The notes under the pieces: generated by a model
Databases searched by the model: none
Told to the model about the DNA's origin: nothing
Seen by the model: the letters and a program-made list of their open reading frames with translations, nothing else
Assembly (NCBI RefSeq): GCF_024700885.2
Contig: NZ_CP117016.1
Strand: one strand, 5' to 3'
DNA from: Escherichia coli
Lineage (GTDB): Bacteria > Pseudomonadota > Gammaproteobacteria > Enterobacterales > Enterobacteriaceae
DNA length: 64,000 nt
Part shown: in pieces, positions 30,054 through 42,706 of the stretch
Layout of the letters: every line of letters starts with the position of its first letter
Numbering within the stretch: the first letter of the stretch is position 1
Translations under genes and position numbers: made by a program

Positions 30054-30580
30054 TGAACTGCACCCCAAATGTTGGACATAATCTGACATCTGAAGGTGCA
30101 GTTTATGAAACATTCATTTGAAGTAAAACTTGCCGCTGTAAATCATTACCTGGCTGGTCATGCAGGCATCATTTCTACGGCAAAACTCTTTCAACTTTCT
30201 CACACCAGCCTCTCACACTGGATTAATCTTTTTCTTCTTCACGGTCCTCGGGCACTGGATTGCAGACACAAGCGTAGCTATTCTCCTGAAGATAAACTTT
30301 GCGTGGTTCTTTATGCTCTCGGGCATTCTGAGTCTCTACCCCGGGTAGCTGCCCGGTTTAATATTCCCAGCCACAACACGGTTAAAAACTGGATAAAAGG
30401 CTACCGCAAATCTGGTAATGAGGCCTTTATCAGGCGCAGGAAGGAGAAAAGCATGACCCGTTCTGATGATACCCATGAAAACGAGGCAAACATGACGCCG
30501 GAAGAGATGAAGAATGAGCTGCGTTATCTTCGCGCAGAAAATGCATATCTGAAAGCCATGCAGGAGCATCTCCTGGAAAA

Positions 30581-31485
<905 letters not shown>

Positions 31486-33075: not shown

Positions 33076-33376
33076 ATGATACAGAGTCGAAAAATCAAAG
33101 AGTTAAAAATTTTTCTTGGAATAAATGTCTTAAAATCGTACAAGAAAAATCAATGAATTACATAACATTAAAGAAGAATATTCCAAGCCTTCTTGAGGCT
33201 ACCACCTGTTTTCAGGTGTCATTCAGACGTGATTTGCCCCAGATTGGGAAAGCACGCTTTTTTCTCAGCTTATTCCGTTTTGCCTGTGTGTTGAATAATT
33301 CCACTGCAGTTATATAAAATCGGTAACGTCTGGAAATCATTCAATACTCGCACTATCGAAAGTTCACCAGCCAACC

Positions 33377-33416
33377 GCAGCACGTTCTTGCATACGACGT
33401 GCTGCGGTTTTCTTTA
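33377..33416 (+). repeat. Palindromic hairpin element, copy B (near-identical to 1295-1335)
   Basis: GCAGCACGTTCTTGCATACGACGTGCTGC followed by GGTTTTCTTTATG; about 28 of 31 core positions match copy A. Confidence 0.5.
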
Positions 33417-33665: not shown

Positions 33666-34997
33666 ATGATTATCAACCAGGTACCTATAAAAATAAAAAT
33701 CTTCATCTTTTTATTTTCATGCATCTCTATTATATTTTTGTTACTGCATGAAAATAATGGAATATACATAACACAAACAACACAAATAAGTTATAGTGTT
33801 TTCATTATTGGGCTTTTTTTCATAAACCTGATGATTTTTATTTTTCTATTGCTTTACTATGTTTCTAATCAGAGACAAAGTTATCTCTTAATTCTTTCAT
33901 TCGCGTTTTTGAGCAACACGTATTATTTATTAGAAGTGGCTATTATTTCTTTATCTCCGTTAGGTAACGATTTATCTACAATCTATCAGAAATCAAATAA
34001 TATCGCAATATATTATCTATTCCGTCAGTTCAGCTTTATATCTATAATCTTTCTGGCTGTTTATTCCACCAATGTTAAAAATAAAAGTGTTTTAGAAGAT
34101 AAAAGAAACATAATAATTGTTGTTTTGTCAATATTAATTCTTTTTATTACTCCGTTTGTAGCAAAAAATCTAAGCAGTGACAATATAAAATATAGTCTTA
34201 ATATTATACAATACTCGCTGAATCGTCATTTGTCGACGTGGAATATCGTGTACACCAAAATAATATCAGTATTTTGGCTTGTATTACTTATCAGCTCATG
34301 CATCAGCATACGTAATTACTCAAAAATATGGTTGTGTATAATACTTATTAGTATAGTGTCAGTATGCAATAATCTAATTTTATTGTATTTTATTGATAAA
34401 TCCCATCCTGCATGGTACATGACAAAATTTCTTGAATTGATATCAATGATTTATATCATTTCAACACTCATGTATTATGTTTTTAGGAAATTAAATCATG
34501 CTAATCATATGGCAATTCATGATCCACTAACGAATACATACAATAGAAGATACTTTATTGACTCATTGAAGAACATATCAAAACACCATGATTTCTCAGT
34601 AATAATGTTAGATATTGACAGTTTCAAAAGCATCAATGACAAATGGGGGCATCATATGGGTGATCAAGTCATAGTAATGGTTACCAGAATAATAAAAAAA
34701 TCCATCAGGAAAGAGGATATATTAGGGCGCTTAGGCGGTGAGGAGTTCGGTATTATCATTAAAGGTAATACTCAAAAGCTCTTGCTATCAATTGCAGAGC
34801 GAATCAGAAAAAACATTGAAGAGCAATGCTCGGAAAAATTATTATCGCATGGACCTGAGAAAATAACTGTCAGTATTGGTTGCTTTACTTCAAAAGAGAA
34901 TAATCTCAGTCCATCTGAAATGTTAGTCAATGCCGACAAAGCGTTATATCAAGCCAAAAGAACCGGAAAAAACAAGGTGATAATTCACTCAAAATAA
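33666..34997 (+). CDS. Membrane-anchored diguanylate cyclase (multi-TM sensor domain plus GGDEF), DgcX-like prophage cargo
   Basis: 443-aa ORF; very AT-rich (I/L/F/N/K/Y-rich) N-terminal membrane domain; C-terminal GGDEF domain with RLGGEEFG active site and upstream RKED I-site-like motif. Confidence 0.85.
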   Translation: MIINQVPIKIKIFIFLFSCISIIFLLLHENNGIYITQTTQISYSVFIIGLFFINLMIFIFLLLYYVSNQRQSYLLILSFAFLSNTYYLLEVAIISLSPLGNDLSTIYQKSNNIAIYYLFRQFSFISIIFLAVYSTNVKNKSVLEDKRNIIIVVLSILILFITPFVAKNLSSDNIKYSLNIIQYSLNRHLSTWNIVYTKIISVFWLVLLISSCISIRNYSKIWLCIILISIVSVCNNLILLYFIDKSHPAWYMTKFLELISMIYIISTLMYYVFRKLNHANHMAIHDPLTNTYNRRYFIDSLKNISKHHDFSVIMLDIDSFKSINDKWGHHMGDQVIVMVTRIIKKSIRKEDILGRLGGEEFGIIIKGNTQKLLLSIAERIRKNIEEQCSEKLLSHGPEKITVSIGCFTSKENNLSPSEMLVNADKALYQAKRTGKNKVIIHSK

Positions 34998-35070: not shown

Positions 35071-35199
35071 CTATTCGATAATGGGTACTGTTGGCCATTC
35101 AATATCCGGTGCAGTTGTTGTATTAACACGGTTCAGCAACACCCGATACTTCTTCCAGGCTTCCAGCAACGAGGTTTCTTCCTCCGTTGCATATACAGC
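35071..35199 (-). pseudogene. 3' remnant of a lambda-type tail-fibre assembly gene (tfa)
   Basis: Encodes [42 protein letters not shown], matching the recalled C-terminus of lambda Tfa; no Tfa-like N-terminus upstream in frame. Confidence 0.6.
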
Positions 35200-35209
35200 C
35201 CACCTTTTT

Positions 35210-35518
35210 TCACCCACGATTAACCAACAGCCAGACCAGCAGACACGCCACCACCGGCACAGCAAAATCCATCAGGCTTGCCACATCCCACGCGCGCGGA
35301 TCAAAACCGCCCCACCACGGCATATTCATTCGCTTGCCATGCCCGAACATTTCGATCCAGCGATATTCTGCCTGGGTGTGTTCACGCGCAATGAAGAACG
35401 TACAACCGGCTATCGCCCCGTAAGCCCAGTTCCCGGTAAAAAGACCAATCAGTAGCTGCGCAGCCACAGCACAAAGCGCATGAAGGAAAGGTGTTATATC
35501 CATTTTCATCCCACCCAA
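35210..35518 (-). CDS. Hypothetical small membrane protein (phage cargo)
   Basis: 102-aa track ORF with two hydrophobic segments; no family recognised. Confidence 0.45.
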
Positions 35519-35545
35519 TAAAACGGGGCGCTCGGCCCCTTAATA

Positions 35546-36586
35546 TTATTTAGACGCAAGCGCCGCATCAATTGCAGATAATCTTTGTCTTAATTCTGCG
35601 TTTTCTTCTTCCAGTGCTGTTATTCTGTCGTCTGACTCTCTGGCTACCTGAACAAGCAAGCCAGTAACACCAGAATAATCTACTGTGTAATAACGTTCAC
35701 CTTCTTCACCTTCCGATCCGCTCGCACCGTCCTGATATTTCATTACGGAACCTACAACTTCTGGGATTGCTTCCAGAGCTTCCTGTGCAATGACACCAGC
35801 ATAGGGCATACCGTTTTCTTTAAGCGTGTATGTATAGCCGTTCATTTTACGGATGCGGTCGGTTGCATTATCGATCACCTGAATGTTGTCTTTCAGATCC
35901 CGGTCGGAATGCTGGTTAAATGCGGTGGCATGACATGCACCATTAACGCTTAACATATAGGTGTTATCGGTATTTTTCTGCGCATAGAACATATAAGCGC
36001 CACCATCAACACCGACTTCATAAACAACAGGACGGCTGGAGTTGCCCCACAATTGAGCAGTAACACCAGCATAAGCGGTTCCCTGTGTGTTTAATGTCAT
36101 GGTTGACCCATGATTGGCATATTTGATCTGTAATGTGTCGGTGTAATCAAATTTAATAAGCGCGTTACTTCCACGCTTGCTGTATGACATAAGGCAGTTA
36201 CCCATTTTGAGGTATCCGCTGTCACCGGGAAAAATCATCGTACCGCCATAAAGGTTGGTAAAGTCCCAGCAAATGTTTGTCCCGTTATCGTTCAGGTTAA
36301 GGCGCGCCATTGCGTTACCTGGACTGTCTATCCATTTTTTGAGGTATAGTTCGCAATACGCATCCTCAACACCTGCCGTCCTGTGAGTTGAGCGGAGTTT
36401 TCTCCCAAATATAGCTCCGCTAGTTGGCAATACCTGCTGATACCATGAAGCAGACCAGTCACCAACGATTTCATCTTTGCTGTCTACATATAATTTTGTT
36501 GCGTAGCTTCCTTGATCGTTTTTTAATTTGCTAACGTCGGATTTTAGCGTTTTGATGTCATCAGGAATTACTGTCGATGTAGCCAT
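35546..36586 (-). CDS. Tail-fibre / tailspike protein with C-terminal intramolecular-chaperone (S74-like) domain
   Basis: 346-aa ORF; C-terminal region with YTYTLKENG...GVIAQE...YSGVTGLLV and a coiled-coil tail resembles self-cleaving chaperone domains of phage fibres. Confidence 0.65.
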   Translation of the reverse strand: MATSTVIPDDIKTLKSDVSKLKNDQGSYATKLYVDSKDEIVGDWSASWYQQVLPTSGAIFGRKLRSTHRTAGVEDAYCELYLKKWIDSPGNAMARLNLNDNGTNICWDFTNLYGGTMIFPGDSGYLKMGNCLMSYSKRGSNALIKFDYTDTLQIKYANHGSTMTLNTQGTAYAGVTAQLWGNSSRPVVYEVGVDGGAYMFYAQKNTDNTYMLSVNGACHATAFNQHSDRDLKDNIQVIDNATDRIRKMNGYTYTLKENGMPYAGVIAQEALEAIPEVVGSVMKYQDGASGSEGEEGERYYTVDYSGVTGLLVQVARESDDRITALEEENAELRQRLSAIDAALASK

Positions 36587-36595
36587 TTTTCTTCC

Positions 36596-36877
36596 TCACA
36601 TCCAGCCACGAAGTTGATGCTCAACAGCAACCACGTATTCATCGAATAATGACGATATTTGCGAATCATTAATGATGCGCACGTTTACAAAATATCCGTC
36701 TTCCTTAACACATACCGGTTCGCCATCTTCAGTCAGTTCTCCGGTTTCTTTGTACACGTTACCTATCACGTCAATAAGAATATCATCCTGCATCGACTCG
36801 TCATCATAATAGCCAGTACTCTCCATAAAGGCCGAAAAGTCGGCCCTGTCGGCAAATTTGAGTGTTAAATCTTTCAT
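36596..36877 (-). CDS. Hypothetical acidic protein in the tail-fibre cassette
   Basis: 93-aa track ORF tightly coupled to neighbours; no family recognised. Confidence 0.45.
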   Translation of the reverse strand: MKDLTLKFADRADFSAFMESTGYYDDESMQDDILIDVIGNVYKETGELTEDGEPVCVKEDGYFVNVRIINDSQISSLFDEYVVAVEHQLRGWM

Positions 36878-39249
36878 TAGATTGACTCCCCCACCTGAGC
36901 ATCAGTCAATGCCTTGTGCCATATTCTGAAATTCCTGACATGACCAAATAAATGACGTAACCCGGCTGTAGTCTGGCCTCCAATACGGATAATTGCGGTG
37001 TTCTGAATACAGGACCATGTGGTTTTTGTTTCGCTGGATATATGCCCGTTACTTACTGAGCACGTAGACTGCTCTGACTTTACACGCATCCCCATAACCA
37101 TTTTTTCAAGCGATGCGTTTTCGTTTACCCGTCTGTTAGCTCCTCCAATATCGCAATAAGGAAATCCGTCGTAATCTGTTGAACGACCGAAGCCAAGAAT
37201 AATAGCCGCTCCGGTTTGATGACCGCCGGTATCAAAAACACGTGGCGCTGCATTTGGCGTTTTATACCAGTTCTTATGTACCTCACAAAGAACCGTAAAA
37301 GGAAGATTATAAAGATTATTCTTAATTGGAACTGTAACTATATCGCTTGCGCGGGTCGCCGCCGTCGCTCCTGATATAATAAAAGATGATACACAAGGCC
37401 CATCTTCTACTTGTGGGGTGGCCAGATAAATATAGTCACCAGATACGGTTGCCCCGCTCTGCTTAGGAGAATACTGTATCTGAGAGCCTATTTTAAACTC
37501 CCCATCAATTGCCTGAATTGTTGCCTCTGCAAAAATCCATCCGGTAGCTTCGTCCTTTCTGACTCTCGCTGTAATTCTTGAGGCAGCACCGCCTGTCATA
37601 TTAATTTCAAGCGTTTGTGTATCAATATACGCATCACCAAGAAAAGTTGTTGCGCTACCGTCATATTTATCAAACCGGATACGCAACCTTACCTGCAGTT
37701 CTGTTTTAAAACGACATGAGGTTGTCACGTGTTTATTATCGCCTGAGACATCAACTGACTTTGTTGCAGCAATTGATGCCATATTAATGGCTGAGGTTTG
37801 CCCAATCAGAGAATCGTTGCAGACAAACTTTCCATAGGTAAAACCAAAATTATCCGTCCCTGTTTCGGGCACATCCATATTTGACGATCGCCCCCAACTG
37901 GCAGGGCTTTCCGAATTGAGCATGTAGTTTGTTCTTTGCCCCTCAATAAGCAGGCCATCACGTTCAAATCGTGGCTCGTCAATGGCAGCCTCTGTCAGCA
38001 CACCAGATTTGTTAATATAGGTTGCTTTCGATGCACGTTTAAACTTAACAATCTTGTCGCCAGGCATCGTTATTTCATCGTCACCAATAACAATTTTTTT
38101 ATATGACGGCGAAAAGCCCGTAATCATATCCAGTGAATCGTTAAACGGTATCCACACATCAGGCAGTGGCTGTAAGACATATTTATACGGCTCTGCTGCC
38201 TGACTTGCATACTCTCTGGCTGCGTCTTCACTTGCTTTAGCTGCTGTCTGGCTTGCTGCCGATGCTTTCGCCGAGTTCGCCGCTGCAGTCTCGCTTGTCT
38301 TTGCATTGGTTTCACTGGTTTTTGCCGCTTTTTGACTGTTGGCTGATGCAGTGGCAGAAGCAGCCGCCGCGCTTGCAGAACCAGCTGCCGCGCTCTCGCT
38401 TTGGGCTGCTGCAACCTGGCTGTTTTTCGCCGCAGTTTCGCTGGCTTTGGCATTCGTTTCGCTGGTCTTCGCTGCCGTCTGGCTGGACTTTGCGTTAGTT
38501 TCACTCGTCTTCGCTGCTTTCTGGCTGTTAGCCGCAGCAGTTGCTGCTCCAGCTGCTGAAGTCGCAGAACCGGCTGCTGCGCTCTCGCTCTCAGCTGCTG
38601 CAGTCTGGCTGTTTTTCGCCGCAGTTTCACTGGCTTTGGCATTCGTTTCGCTGGCCTTCGCTGCCGTCTGGCTGGACTTTGCGTTGGTTTCGCTCGTCTT
38701 TGCTGCTGTCTCGCTATTTTTCGCGTTGGTTTCTGATTTTTTAGCTGCTGTCGCGGAATTTGCCGATGCAGTCTGCGAGGCCGCTGCCGCCTGTGCGCTG
38801 TTAGCTGCATTCGTTTCTGAGTTTTTCGCCGCGTTCTTCGATGATGCCGCTGCAGTTTCGGATTTCTTTGCCGCCGCTGCGCTCTGAGAGGCGGCTTCAG
38901 CGTTGCGTGCCGCTTCTTCCACCATTACCTCAAAACGACGCAATGCCTCCGGCATGACATCCTCTTCCGTCATGGCACCGAGAAAATCATTCAGCGTGCC
39001 TGGTCTGGAACCTTCATAGACGGTAATGGTCCCGGCATGTGAAGGCGGAAAACCTTCAACCAGCAGGGTGACGCTGTACTGGCCATACTCAACATCCATG
39101 CTGTAACGCCCGGCTTCATCCGGATTTTCAGAGGCCACCGTATTCACCAGTACCGTGGTGCTGTTACGCTTTGCTTTGAGCTGAATAGTGCAGTTCTGTA
39201 TTGGTTTTCCTGCACCGTCTTTCAGCACGCCTGAAATCTGTACTGCCAT
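36877..39249 (-). CDS. stf: Side tail fibre protein, lambda Stf-like N-terminus with Ala/Ser/Thr-rich repeat shaft
   Basis: N-terminus MAVQISGVLKDGAGKPIQNCTIQLKA resembles lambda Stf; track ORF starts two codons earlier at 39255. Confidence 0.8.
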   Translation of the reverse strand: MAVQISGVLKDGAGKPIQNCTIQLKAKRNSTTVLVNTVASENPDEAGRYSMDVEYGQYSVTLLVEGFPPSHAGTITVYEGSRPGTLNDFLGAMTEEDVMPEALRRFEVMVEEAARNAEAASQSAAAAKKSETAAASSKNAAKNSETNAANSAQAAAASQTASANSATAAKKSETNAKNSETAAKTSETNAKSSQTAAKASETNAKASETAAKNSQTAAAESESAAAGSATSAAGAATAAANSQKAAKTSETNAKSSQTAAKTSETNAKASETAAKNSQVAAAQSESAAAGSASAAAASATASANSQKAAKTSETNAKTSETAAANSAKASAASQTAAKASEDAAREYASQAAEPYKYVLQPLPDVWIPFNDSLDMITGFSPSYKKIVIGDDEITMPGDKIVKFKRASKATYINKSGVLTEAAIDEPRFERDGLLIEGQRTNYMLNSESPASWGRSSNMDVPETGTDNFGFTYGKFVCNDSLIGQTSAINMASIAATKSVDVSGDNKHVTTSCRFKTELQVRLRIRFDKYDGSATTFLGDAYIDTQTLEINMTGGAASRITARVRKDEATGWIFAEATIQAIDGEFKIGSQIQYSPKQSGATVSGDYIYLATPQVEDGPCVSSFIISGATAATRASDIVTVPIKNNLYNLPFTVLCEVHKNWYKTPNAAPRVFDTGGHQTGAAIILGFGRSTDYDGFPYCDIGGANRRVNENASLEKMVMGMRVKSEQSTCSVSNGHISSETKTTWSCIQNTAIIRIGGQTTAGLRHLFGHVRNFRIWHKALTDAQVGESI
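38340..38720. repeat. In-frame tandem duplication (about 189-bp unit, 2 copies) inside stf
   Basis: Near-identical DNA blocks about 38341-38530 and 38530-38720 encoding repeated KTSETNAKSSQTAAK-type shaft repeats. Confidence 0.7.
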
Positions 39250-39307
39250 ATTCACTCCACAAATAAAAAAGGCGCCATTTCTGGCGCCCGTATTTGGGTT
39301 ATAAAAC

Positions 39308-42300
39308 TCAACTGATACTGATACCGGCTGTTGATTTCTTCATCACGACAACAAGAAGGTCGCTGATACTGGTCGTTGGCGTCCAGTTATTAGCACCATA
39401 TGAAGAAACATTGAAAGTCAGGGTGACATGACCGTGTCCGGCAGGCATATCAATGACGGATGAAAATACCCTGCTGACATCCGTCGCGGGTTGCTGAAAG
39501 ATTTCCTGTCCGTTCTTCAGCACCTGCAGCTTACAGGTTGAATACCAGTATGACTGTTGGTTGTTGCTGTTGAAGTTTTCATGCTTACCACCGCGAAACA
39601 GAACGGGTGGGATTACTATCTGACGGTCAAAAGCCTGATCATCGTACACAGTGACCGTTATTGTACCGCTGGCATAACTGCCATTTCTCGGAAAGGCTTT
39701 TCCCACCGTTTTGACAATATCACCTTCAATCTGGTTGGCAGACAGTTTTCCCAGAATCCGACAGTTCTGGTTAATCGTGACATTATTGAGCGTCCCGGAG
39801 TTCGCATTCACGTTACCGCTGATATCGGCATTTTTCGCCGTCAGCCGCCCGTCCGGTGTCAGGGAAAATACCGGAGGATTGCCGCCGCTGGTAATGGTGG
39901 GAGCCGTCAGATACTTCAGGAACACTTCGTTCATGAATATCTGGTTGCCCTGCGCCACAAACATCGGCGTTTCATTCCCGTTTGCCGGGTCAATAAACGC
40001 GATACGGTTAGCGGCAACCAGGAACTGGCTCAGTTTGCCTTCCTCCGTATCCTCCATGCTGAGGCCAAGCCCCGCGACATAATGCCTGCCGTCTTCGGTC
40101 TGCTCAATTTTGACGCCCCACATGGCATTCCATTTATCGTTGGCGTCCTTCCACTCTTTCGAAAACTCCTCCAGTTTGCTGGCGTTATCCTCCGTCAGCT
40201 CGACTTTTTCCAGCAGCTCCTTGCCGAGATGGGATTCGGTTATCTGACCTTTGAAAAAATCCAGGTAACCTTCCGCATCATCGCTCGCCCGACCGACAGC
40301 CTCCACGAATGCCGATTTGCCAACGGTGTTCACACTGCGAACGTAAAAATAATAATCATGACCCGGCTTAATATTGATACTGGCAGCTATCCAGTACAGC
40401 GCCGTGCCAAGATAGCGGGCTGTGGTTTCAACCTGCCTGATATCCGCAATCCGCTTTTCCGAGAACCAGAACTCAAACTGTACCGTCGGATCATAAACGG
40501 CAAGATGCGGCGTGGCGGTTATCTGAAAATAGCCCGGCGTCAGCTCAATCCGCGATGGCGCTGCCGGTGCGGCAATCCGGAACGATACCGACGCCGGATC
40601 GCCCTGCTGCCCCCACGCATTTACCGCCCGGACTGTCAGACTGTAATTTCCCAGAGCCAGCTGCCTGAAGCGGTATGTGGTTTCCGTCGTCCGGGCTGTG
40701 CTGACCAGCCGCTCACTGCCGTCATCCGCTGCCACGGTCAGGCAAAGCATAAAGCTCACGCCCTTCACCACCTTCGGCGTATCCCAGCGCGCCAGCACCT
40801 GGTATTCCCCGCTGTCTGCGGTGACTTCTGCGGTCAGGTGTTGCACTGCTGGCGGAGTGACACCATTCACCGTGCCGCTCTGGTCGCCGTCAAAGTGCGC
40901 CCCGTTATCCACGATGGCTTCTTTCTCCGGCACATGCTGCACGGCAGTGATGGCATACGTACCGTCATCGTTCTCACGGATACTCACGCAGCGGAACAGG
41001 CGCTGGCGCAGCGTCGGCAGCTTCAGCCCCCACACGCTGTATTCTGCAACGCCGTCAGGAACCCGGCTCACTTTCACCTTCACGCCGTCGGTGACGGACT
41101 GGACCTCCACGCTGACCGGATTCCCCTGTCCGTCAACCAGGCTTATCAGCGTGGTGCCGGAGGATGGCAGCGTGATTTCACGGTCGAGCGTCAGTGTCCG
41201 CGTCTGGCTGTTCACCGCCAGCACGCGCCCGCCGATGCTGATACCCGCATAGTCATCATCACAGATTTCAATGACATCGCCCGGTACATGGCGAAGCCCT
41301 TCTGCACCCACGCTGAAGTCCACGGTCTGCGTTTCCAGCAGCTCCGTTTTAATCAGCCACAGCCCGGCGCGGTGTGCCTGCCCCCGGCTGGTACAGCCAA
41401 AGGCATCCATCTTCGTGACGTTACGACCGTAACGGGCAATGGCCTGCGTATCTTCAACAAGCTCTGTCGCCGTCTCCCAGCCGTTATTCGGGTCAATCCA
41501 GTTCACCTCAACGGCATTATGGCGGTCCTTCAGGGCGCTGAAGCTGTAGCGGAACGGCGCGCCATCATCCGGCATCACCACATTACTGCGGTTATAGGTC
41601 CACACCTTATCCGACGGTCGGTCCTGCACGAACGTCAGCGTCTGCCCGTTCCATACCGGCATACAGCGCATCGCCGAGCAGAAATCACTGAGAACATCCC
41701 ACGCCTTACGCTGTGTGGTCAGCCAGGCATTACAGGTGATGCGCGGCTCCGTGCCACCAAAGCCATCCGGCACTGACTGATCGCAATACTGGCCGATGAC
41801 ATACAGCGCCCATTTGTCCACATCCGCCGCACCAAGACGTTTCCCCATGCCGTAGCGCGGGTGGGTCAGCATATCCCACAGACACCAGGCCATGTTGTTG
41901 CTGTATGCCGGTTTAAACGTCCCGTCCCAGATACCGTTGTATTGCCGCGTCTGCGGGTTATAGTTCGACGGCACCTGCAGAATGCGCCCGCGAAGATGAT
42001 AATTACGGCTCACCTGCTGGCTGCCGAACTGTTCCGAGTCCACCTGCACACCGACCAGTGCCGTGTTCGGGTAGCACTGTTTCACATCGATGATTTCGGT
42101 GTATGACGACCAGAGCGTTTTGTTCTGCAGCTGGTCTGTGGTGCTGTCCGGTGTCATCCTGCGCATCCGGATATTGAACGGGCGCGGCGGCAGGTTATCC
42201 ACCACCACCGAGGCCAGATACTGCGAGGTGGTTTTGCCCTTAATGGTGATGTCTTTTTCCGTCACCCAGCCACCGTTACGCTGTATCTGAACCAGCAGGC

Positions 42301-42706
42301 GGACTTCCGACGGATTCCGGTCCCCCTTTGAAGTGGTTTCCACCAGAGCCTGCACACCGAAGGTAAAGCGCAGACGGTCGATGTTTGCAGACGTGATGGT
42401 CCGGGTGATCGGCGTGTCATATTTCACTTCCGTACCCAGCACCGTCTCGGATCCGGAGGATTCAAAACCCTCCGGCGGTGTCTGCTCCTGCTCACCTGCC
42501 CGGAACACCACCGTGACACCGGCGATGTTGGTATTCCCTTCACTGTCCAGCACCGGCGTACTGTTCAGCAGCACGCTTTTTAATCCATCCACCGGACCTT
42601 CTATCGGCCCTTCGCTGATGGCATCGATCACACTCAGTAACTGCGTGGATTTCAGGTTGTCCTTCGCTTCGCGTGGGGTATGCCCCTTACTGCTGCCTTT
42701 ACCCAT
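39308..42706 (-). CDS. J: Tail tip host-specificity protein J
   Basis: 1132-aa ORF, the same length as lambda J; N-terminus [43 protein letters not shown]. Confidence 0.95.

Follow-up and report, generated by a model that had tools for sequence, protein, structure and literature searches.

Is a conspicuous tandem repeat in a phage tail fibre gene a recent, unstable lengthening of the fibre, or an old and settled part of its shaft? The question is raised by a window of 64,000 nucleotides (the whole stretch of DNA that was analysed) from Escherichia coli contig NZ_CP117016.1, in which a reading from the sequence alone had noticed two head-to-tail units inside a fibre gene and proposed that they were the product of a recent duplication, unstable and able to vary between isolates.

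The fibre gene and its distal module

The repeat lies in a gene of the minus strand, surrounded by other tail genes of the same orientation:

39308..42706, minus strand: gpJ central tail fibre / tail tip gene, upstream of stf (ORF list and annotation)
36877..39249, minus strand: stf-type side tail fibre gene, 790 aa (ORF list, annotation and phrog_1419)
38857..39249, minus strand: N-terminal collar domain of stf, aa 1-131 (PF08400 and PDB 9e7m/9mgh)
38185..38877, minus strand: array of 33 uninterrupted heptads, aa 125-355, the Ala/Ser-rich alpha-helical coiled-coil shaft (PCoil / proximal coiled coil; heptad table)
36880..38184, minus strand: C-terminal fibre part, aa 356-790 (NF048003 and phrog_5939)
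36596-36877, minus strand: 93-aa protein, function unassigned, fibre-associated, downstream of stf (phrog_1361/phrog_4563 for the two downstream genes)
35546-36586, minus strand: 346-aa tail fibre protein with a Peptidase_S74 intramolecular chaperone domain (PF13884, E=4.8e-14)

The gene that hosts the repeat encodes a side tail fibre of the lambda Stf type, as judged from the N-terminal domain, the place of the gene and the shaft; its distal module is not that of lambda. PF08400 (Prophage tail fibre N-terminal) matches aa 1-131 (E=1.5e-66, with 222.9 bits where the cut-off is 26.6), and residues 1-94 match the lambda StfN collar (PDB 9e7m/9mgh, 'Tail fiber protein'; E=9e-49), the domain that fixes the fibre to the tail tip in the cryo-EM study of Ur-lambda (PMC12617516). 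The product is matched over its full length by phrog_1419 (a tail protein family), and in a 100%-identical record (NZ_CP117013, E. coli MLI114) PGAP labels it 'prophage tail fiber N-terminal domain-containing protein'. The gene is directly downstream of gpJ and is preceded by a full lambda-like tail and head gene order; the surrounding window contains a complete lambdoid morphogenesis module adjoining the hchA-zinT chromosomal region. The assignment of the repeat to the stf shaft, as first proposed, is thus confirmed by PF08400, by PDB 9e7m and by the position after gpJ.

The Stf of Ur-lambda has been modelled as a trimer with a collar domain (1-91), a linker (92-101) and a proximal coiled-coil domain (102-393) (PMC12617516). 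The fibre described here shares with it the PF08400 collar, the place after gpJ, the Ala/Ser/Thr-rich heptads and the SETNA motifs. However, its shaft belongs to a different allele family, carrying a tandem duplication of nine heptads, and the lambda-type hinge, distal domain and OmpC-binding tip are absent. Instead, the C-terminus is GTA/head-spike-fibre-like, with a domain of this kind at aa 434-634 (NCBIfam NF048003, E=2.5e-13) and phrog_5939 spanning aa 367-788. This part is presumably receptor-binding, and it is exchanged among alleles with the same shaft. The lambda-like combination of distal domain and downstream Tfa assembly chaperone is not found either: intact tfa is absent downstream of stf, a tfa remnant alone is annotated, and the extra fibre genes (93 aa and 346 aa) stand in its place.

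A nine-heptad repeat in the coiled-coil shaft

The heptads of the shaft follow the pattern T-A/N-A-K/A-x-S-E/Q. Of the 33 heptads, 30 have Ala at position 3, 30 have Ser at position 6 and 21 have Thr at position 1. Because SETNAKx/SQTAAKx heptads are encoded, the DNA of the shaft has a 21-bp period. Within this array, Tandem Repeats Finder, a direct-repeat search and the codon-level diagonal at offset 189 delimited two full units, and the same diagonal revealed a partial third copy:

38530..38718, minus strand: repeat unit 1, aa 178-240, nine heptads
38341..38529, minus strand: repeat unit 2, aa 241-303, nine heptads
38299..38340, minus strand: partial third copy, 14 codons, aa 304-317, NSQKAAK TSETNAK

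Tandem Repeats Finder reported a period of 189 with 1.8 copies, 90% matches and no indels (38375-38715), as well as nested 21- and 42-bp periods in the shaft; the direct-repeat search returned a 189-nt pair at a spacing of 189. Units 1 and 2 are identical at 159/189 nt (84%) and 53/63 aa, and the partial third copy matches the head of unit 2 with 81% nt identity. The total array comprises about 2.2 copies of 63 codons, all in frame in stf. The sequence-only reading had placed head-to-tail, in-frame units of 63 codons (about 189 bp) at 38340-38720, which proved right almost to the base, and had called them near-identical with few differences, a wording that recognised a genuine repeat but overstated its likeness, as 30 of 189 nt differ. 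The 14-codon partial copy at 38299-38340 had gone unnoticed.

These differences comprise 19 synonymous and 11 non-synonymous changes (pS 0.42, dS 0.61, dN 0.08, dN/dS about 0.13); both copies appear to have diverged under purifying selection after the duplication. The divergence is patchy: heptads 2-5 differ at about 4% of positions, the last two at 36%. One duplication event with even divergence thereafter does not account for such a pattern, which suggests past conversion of the core or an origin in several steps.

Since 63 is 9 x 7, the duplication preserves the coiled-coil register, and the heptads run unbroken across the boundary between units 1 and 2. By homology with the fibres of Ur-lambda (PMC12617516) and of EHEC prophages, whose PCoil is a trimeric coiled coil by CD, SEC-MALLS and EM (Ghosh et al. 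2012, PMC3368898), the shaft is probably a trimeric coiled coil. At about 0.15 nm for each of its 63 residues, a unit would then extend a parallel trimeric rod by about 9 nm. A PDB search for a solved shaft structure yielded, for this protein family, no more than the first 94 residues at the N-terminus; its other matches (RPB1 CTD, depolymerases) were discarded as low-complexity noise.

When the two-unit shaft was modelled as a monomer with AF2, two helices were obtained (101-238 and 251-352, pLDDT about 70-81 within them), interrupted precisely where the two units meet (aa 239-250), where the chain folds back. The turn itself had a pLDDT below 50, with a pTM of 0.23. A one-unit fibre, used as control, gave a single continuous helix (H96-289), so the fold-back is not shown to be a generic artefact of monomer modelling. 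Two proposals go beyond a plain lengthening of the rod. The broader one, which we consider improbable, is that the nine-heptad unit is a selected length module and not a neutral relic, its reach matched to a tail tip bearing the GTA-spike-like domain and the extra S74-type fibre, or else, if the model is followed, an antiparallel hairpin that would change the architecture. The narrower one holds that the rod is not lengthened at all: the two units would pair as an antiparallel hairpin and build a six-helix bundle in the trimer, altering the geometry of the fibre. The position of the predicted break and the continuous helix of the one-unit model speak for such a hairpin, as do the six intertwined chains in the distal part of lambda Stf (PMC12617516), but we judge it very unlikely: the turn is of low model confidence, the heptad register passes straight through it, and a folded-back AlphaFold model of Stf contradicts cryo-ET according to the Ur-lambda authors (PMC12617516). 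Moreover, viable one-unit and two-unit phages are near-identical at the start of the C-terminal domain, which a simple change in rod length fits better.

Length variants, age and spread of the two-unit shaft

Shaft length was surveyed in the best 120 protein clusters, 39 of which were anchored:

231 aa: 33 heptads, 27 clusters
168 aa: 24 heptads, exactly one unit fewer, 7 clusters
203 aa: 29 heptads, 1 cluster
217 aa: 31 heptads, 2 clusters
219 aa: off-register, 1 cluster
227 aa: off-register, 1 cluster

Copy number is therefore polymorphic, with rare variants: one-unit shafts account for 7/39 anchored protein clusters, and no three-unit shaft was present among these 39. A synthetic one-unit query retrieved a one-unit allele in a complete genome, MSB1_4I (NZ_LR898874, allele L011), together with strain EFF60, in which four heptads between two NSQ heptads are deleted. 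Allele L012 is shorter by four heptads (21 heptads from the NSE anchor) and allele L006 by 15. Phage IdasGreatGrand (allele L014) has a one-unit, 24-heptad shaft, and the first 60 residues of its C-terminal domain are identical to those of the window.

The single unit of MSB1_4I consists of an L003-like unit 1 up to a point at nt 33-62, continued by unit 2, its last 147 nt being identical to unit 2 of L003. That of IdasGreatGrand is composed of an L004-like unit 1 up to a point at nt 115-137, again continued by unit 2. The crossover points of the two alleles differ, and on sequence grounds the likeliest history is that two two-unit alleles each lost a unit, independently, through unequal crossing-over. 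It might be argued instead that the one-unit shaft is ancestral and that these alleles are survivors rather than deletion products, given that a gene predating the duplication would also resemble a unit with the head of unit 1 and the tail of unit 2. This appears highly improbable, as the 147 nt shared by L011 and L003 include L003-specific polymorphisms, L014 fits another parent and another switch point, and both one-unit alleles have all 10 tail states specific to unit 2, so that all the changes would be needed on the unit 1 lineage. Unit loss from two-unit alleles thus remains our reading of both cases. No Chi sequence (GCTGGTGG), as a stimulator of recombination, was found in the window between 30 and 45 kb.

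The age of the duplication was addressed by comparing the alleles of the window and of five other genomes, including BL21, which among them have at least three different C-terminal domains. All six alleles have the two units and the partial third copy, and they differ from one another by 4-8%. Orthologous units (unit 1 with unit 1, unit 2 with unit 2) were 92-100% identical at the nucleotide level, with means of 95%, versus 84-87% for paralogous units within a gene and 83-87% (mean 85%) for paralogous units between genes; 14 paralog-specific differences are fixed across the six alleles. Orthologues being closer than paralogues, and these differences being fixed, the duplication predates the diversification of the allele family. 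The equal identity of paralogues within and between genes indicates that whole units are not being homogenised, and we reject concerted evolution over whole units on the same ground; the copies are not more alike within a gene, as those of a recent or VNTR-like duplication would be. One exception is local: in allele L002, a conversion tract at unit positions 105-154 leaves 1 mismatch between the two units, versus 6-10 in other alleles.

Searches with a 1,250-bp query covering the N-terminal domain and the shaft detected 958 genomes with a place covering at least 80% of the query; the full-length matches listed span 1,247-1,250 bp at 93-100% identity. A 126-nt probe for the junction between the tail of unit 1 and the head of unit 2 was found at a coverage of at least 80% in 1007/5426 genomes, and a probe for the tail of unit 2, common to one-unit and two-unit alleles, in 1017/5426. 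Judging from these BLAST summary counts, an estimated 99% of carriers (about 1007/1017) retain both units. The two-unit shaft also occurs in an E. marmotae record, and phages 2G7b, PhiR49_1, HannyBb, ev207, Tritos, PhiR63_1 and PhiR46_1 show full-length shaft matches with no change in length, the 33-heptad, two-unit shaft of PhiR49_1 being confirmed by translation. A synthetic three-unit query found no three-unit allele: its top matches were two-unit alleles split in two pieces. Two units are the norm in this allele family, which is widespread in Escherichia prophages and occurs in viable phages, and the stf repeat is not a hypervariable locus.

These data leave little of the view that the duplication is recent and unstable, with a copy number varying freely between isolates. 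One-unit alleles and other length variants do exist, and over their central five heptads the two units share about 96% identity, but a dS of about 0.6 over whole units that differ at 30 positions, the fixed differences and the much closer orthologues of the six alleles, the almost universal retention of both units and the lack of any three-unit allele in our searches make it hardly tenable. Of what the sequence-only reading had claimed in this respect, recency finds no support. Instability survives to the extent that rare one-unit and heptad-deleted variants occur, against a junction kept in nearly all carriers, and variation between isolates is real when copy number is compared across genomes, but consists of rare events.

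As a background for the repeat itself, 283 pairs of 189-nt windows set apart by other multiples of 21 nt along the shaft gave an in-register identity of 49.8 +/- 4.4% (maximum 59.8%), so that the 84% at offset 189 stands about 7.8 SD above it, which is more than the low-complexity similarity that might have accounted for the units. Although the whole shaft is periodic at 21 and 42 bp, we give practically no credence to the repeat being mere 21-bp heptad periodicity or an assembly artefact, because no other in-register offset exceeds 60% and the same structure recurs in about 1,000 independent complete genomes and in isolated phages.

Origin of the repeat and relation to known fibres

Taken together, the evidence makes it very probable that the repeat goes back to an in-frame tandem duplication of nine heptads which is ancient and has become fixed in a lambda-Stf-type coiled-coil shaft, and which is occasionally reshaped by the mechanism that presumably created it. 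Unequal recombination between heptad-coding stretches 189 bp apart would have produced the duplication, with the short homology at the border of the array, marked by the partial third copy and its shared NSQKAAK TSETNAK, as a likely trace of that exchange. The outcome would be a trimeric rod extended by nine heptads, or about 9 nm, with no change of register, in which purifying selection may have retained both copies. Later reshaping has included at least two independent events of unequal crossing-over, each with its own crossover point in the near-identical core and each removing one unit, as well as smaller deletions that mostly keep the heptad register and short tracts of intragenic conversion.

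Copy-number-variable in-frame repeats are known from other coiled-coil surface fibres, such as the blocks of streptococcal M protein and the stalks of trimeric autotransporters, in which gain or loss of units by unequal recombination alters the length of the rod. In contrast to these, the copy number of the stf repeat is near-fixed at two, with about 1% variants, and there is no sign here of rapid size variation or antigenic selection. In P2, Mu, lambda and T-even phages the tail-fibre genes are reportedly mosaic, short conserved motifs serving as recombination joints (Haggard-Ljungquist 1992, as cited in PMC3368898). The same shaft being joined to several C-terminal domains is a similar situation, consistent with the conserved repetitive shaft acting as a recombination substrate, but the feature described here is an intragenic duplication and not an exchange between phages.

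A close precedent is the PCoil of EHEC prophage fibres, whose length variants differ in steps of seven residues (Ghosh et al. 2012, PMC3368898). Like PCoil, the present shaft consists of low-complexity Ala/Ser heptads straight after PF08400, and its lengths vary mostly in sevens (24, 29, 31 and 33 heptads, with two off-register clusters), whereas no collagen domain follows it, unlike in the collagen-like EHEC fibres (PMC3368898). Heptad-quantised length variation of PCoil having been published in 2012 (PMC3368898), the duplication is an instance of a known phenomenon. That paper does not contain the 63-residue duplication or its population history, and neither was found in the literature searched.

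Beyond a tidy annotation the importance of the case is small. It illustrates that a striking tandem repeat in a gene for a phage fibre need not be a mutational hotspot and can be both old and stable, and it documents, with crossover points, how periodic DNA coding for heptads yields length variants of a coiled coil that preserve its register. For the design of Stf chimeras in phage-based delivery, the natural occurrence of shafts of 24, 29, 31 and 33 heptads with related C-terminal domains suggests that length is tolerated, the 24-heptad version being present in a viable phage.

The periodic shaft also affects gene calling. A plus-strand ORF at 38339-38887 (182 aa) was rejected as a gene, being merely the complement of the heptads. 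PGAP splits intact stf genes into false pseudogenes because of the low-complexity shaft.

Shaft variants in relatives

The two-unit shaft of the window stf also occurs in E. coli BL21 (NZ_CP060121, 1553825-1557628), where an IS3 insertion has truncated the 5' end of the gene and the collar domain has been lost. A further variant was found in a phage:

PV340547 38906-41260, shaft variant of phage PhiR11_1

The PhiR11_1 shaft contains two units, the tail of unit 2 being one heptad short. The sequence then changes to another coiled-coil end with more charge (…TKAAASE IEATSAA TRAENAA RIAEDAA…), which leads into a C-terminal domain of another type. In this arrangement, a joint made by recombination is visible within the partial third copy.

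Annotation of the shaft

In several genomes, PGAP splits stf into an N-terminal fragment labelled 'pseudo, missing C-terminus' and a second CDS, named 'phage head spike fiber domain'. Three such split relatives of the window gene (36877-39249) were analysed:

L003 378-2753, stf split by PGAP
L007 411-2432, stf split by PGAP
L008 299-2359, stf split by PGAP

Despite the split, the reading frame is open from start to stop in all three; the low-complexity shaft has probably led the annotation to make a false division. The strand opposite the shaft also carries an open reading frame:

38339-38887, +, antisense ORF of 182 aa, rich in Ala, Leu and Phe

This ORF is the mere complement of the Ala/Ser/Lys heptads. 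A comparable antisense ORF is named a hypothetical protein by PGAP in L012 (2132-2488), a relative with a disrupted stf.

Genes on either side of stf

In lambda, tfa lies downstream of stf, whereas in the window prophage this place (35210-36877, - strand) is taken by other genes and the sole trace of tfa downstream of stf is a remnant:

within 35210-36877, -, 93-aa unknown protein (phrog_1361)
within 35210-36877, -, 346-aa fibre protein with a Peptidase_S74 intramolecular chaperone domain (phrog_4563)
within 35210-36877, -, 102-aa unknown protein (phrog_1443)
~35071-35190, tfa remnant

This gene set suggests that the side fibre of the window prophage is composite or branched. On the other side of stf, the gpJ-stf intergenic segment (39250-39307) is without a lom gene; at this place a 676-bp insertion with an Ail/Lom outer-membrane protein gene is present in many close relatives.

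Prophage edge

The DNA around the prophage edge contains these features:

~30100-31450, IS1397 (IS3-family) element, between msrQ and zinT
~33300-33390, 72-bp capsid-gene fragment, near the prophage edge
33666-34997, +, membrane sensor diguanylate cyclase gene, very AT-rich

The diguanylate cyclase gene, with a GC content of 27-29% versus ~45-55% nearby, directly adjoins the tail-fibre end of the prophage on its outer side and has the look of a moron, cargo gained by horizontal transfer. The capsid-gene fragment hints at older phage remnants in this attachment region.
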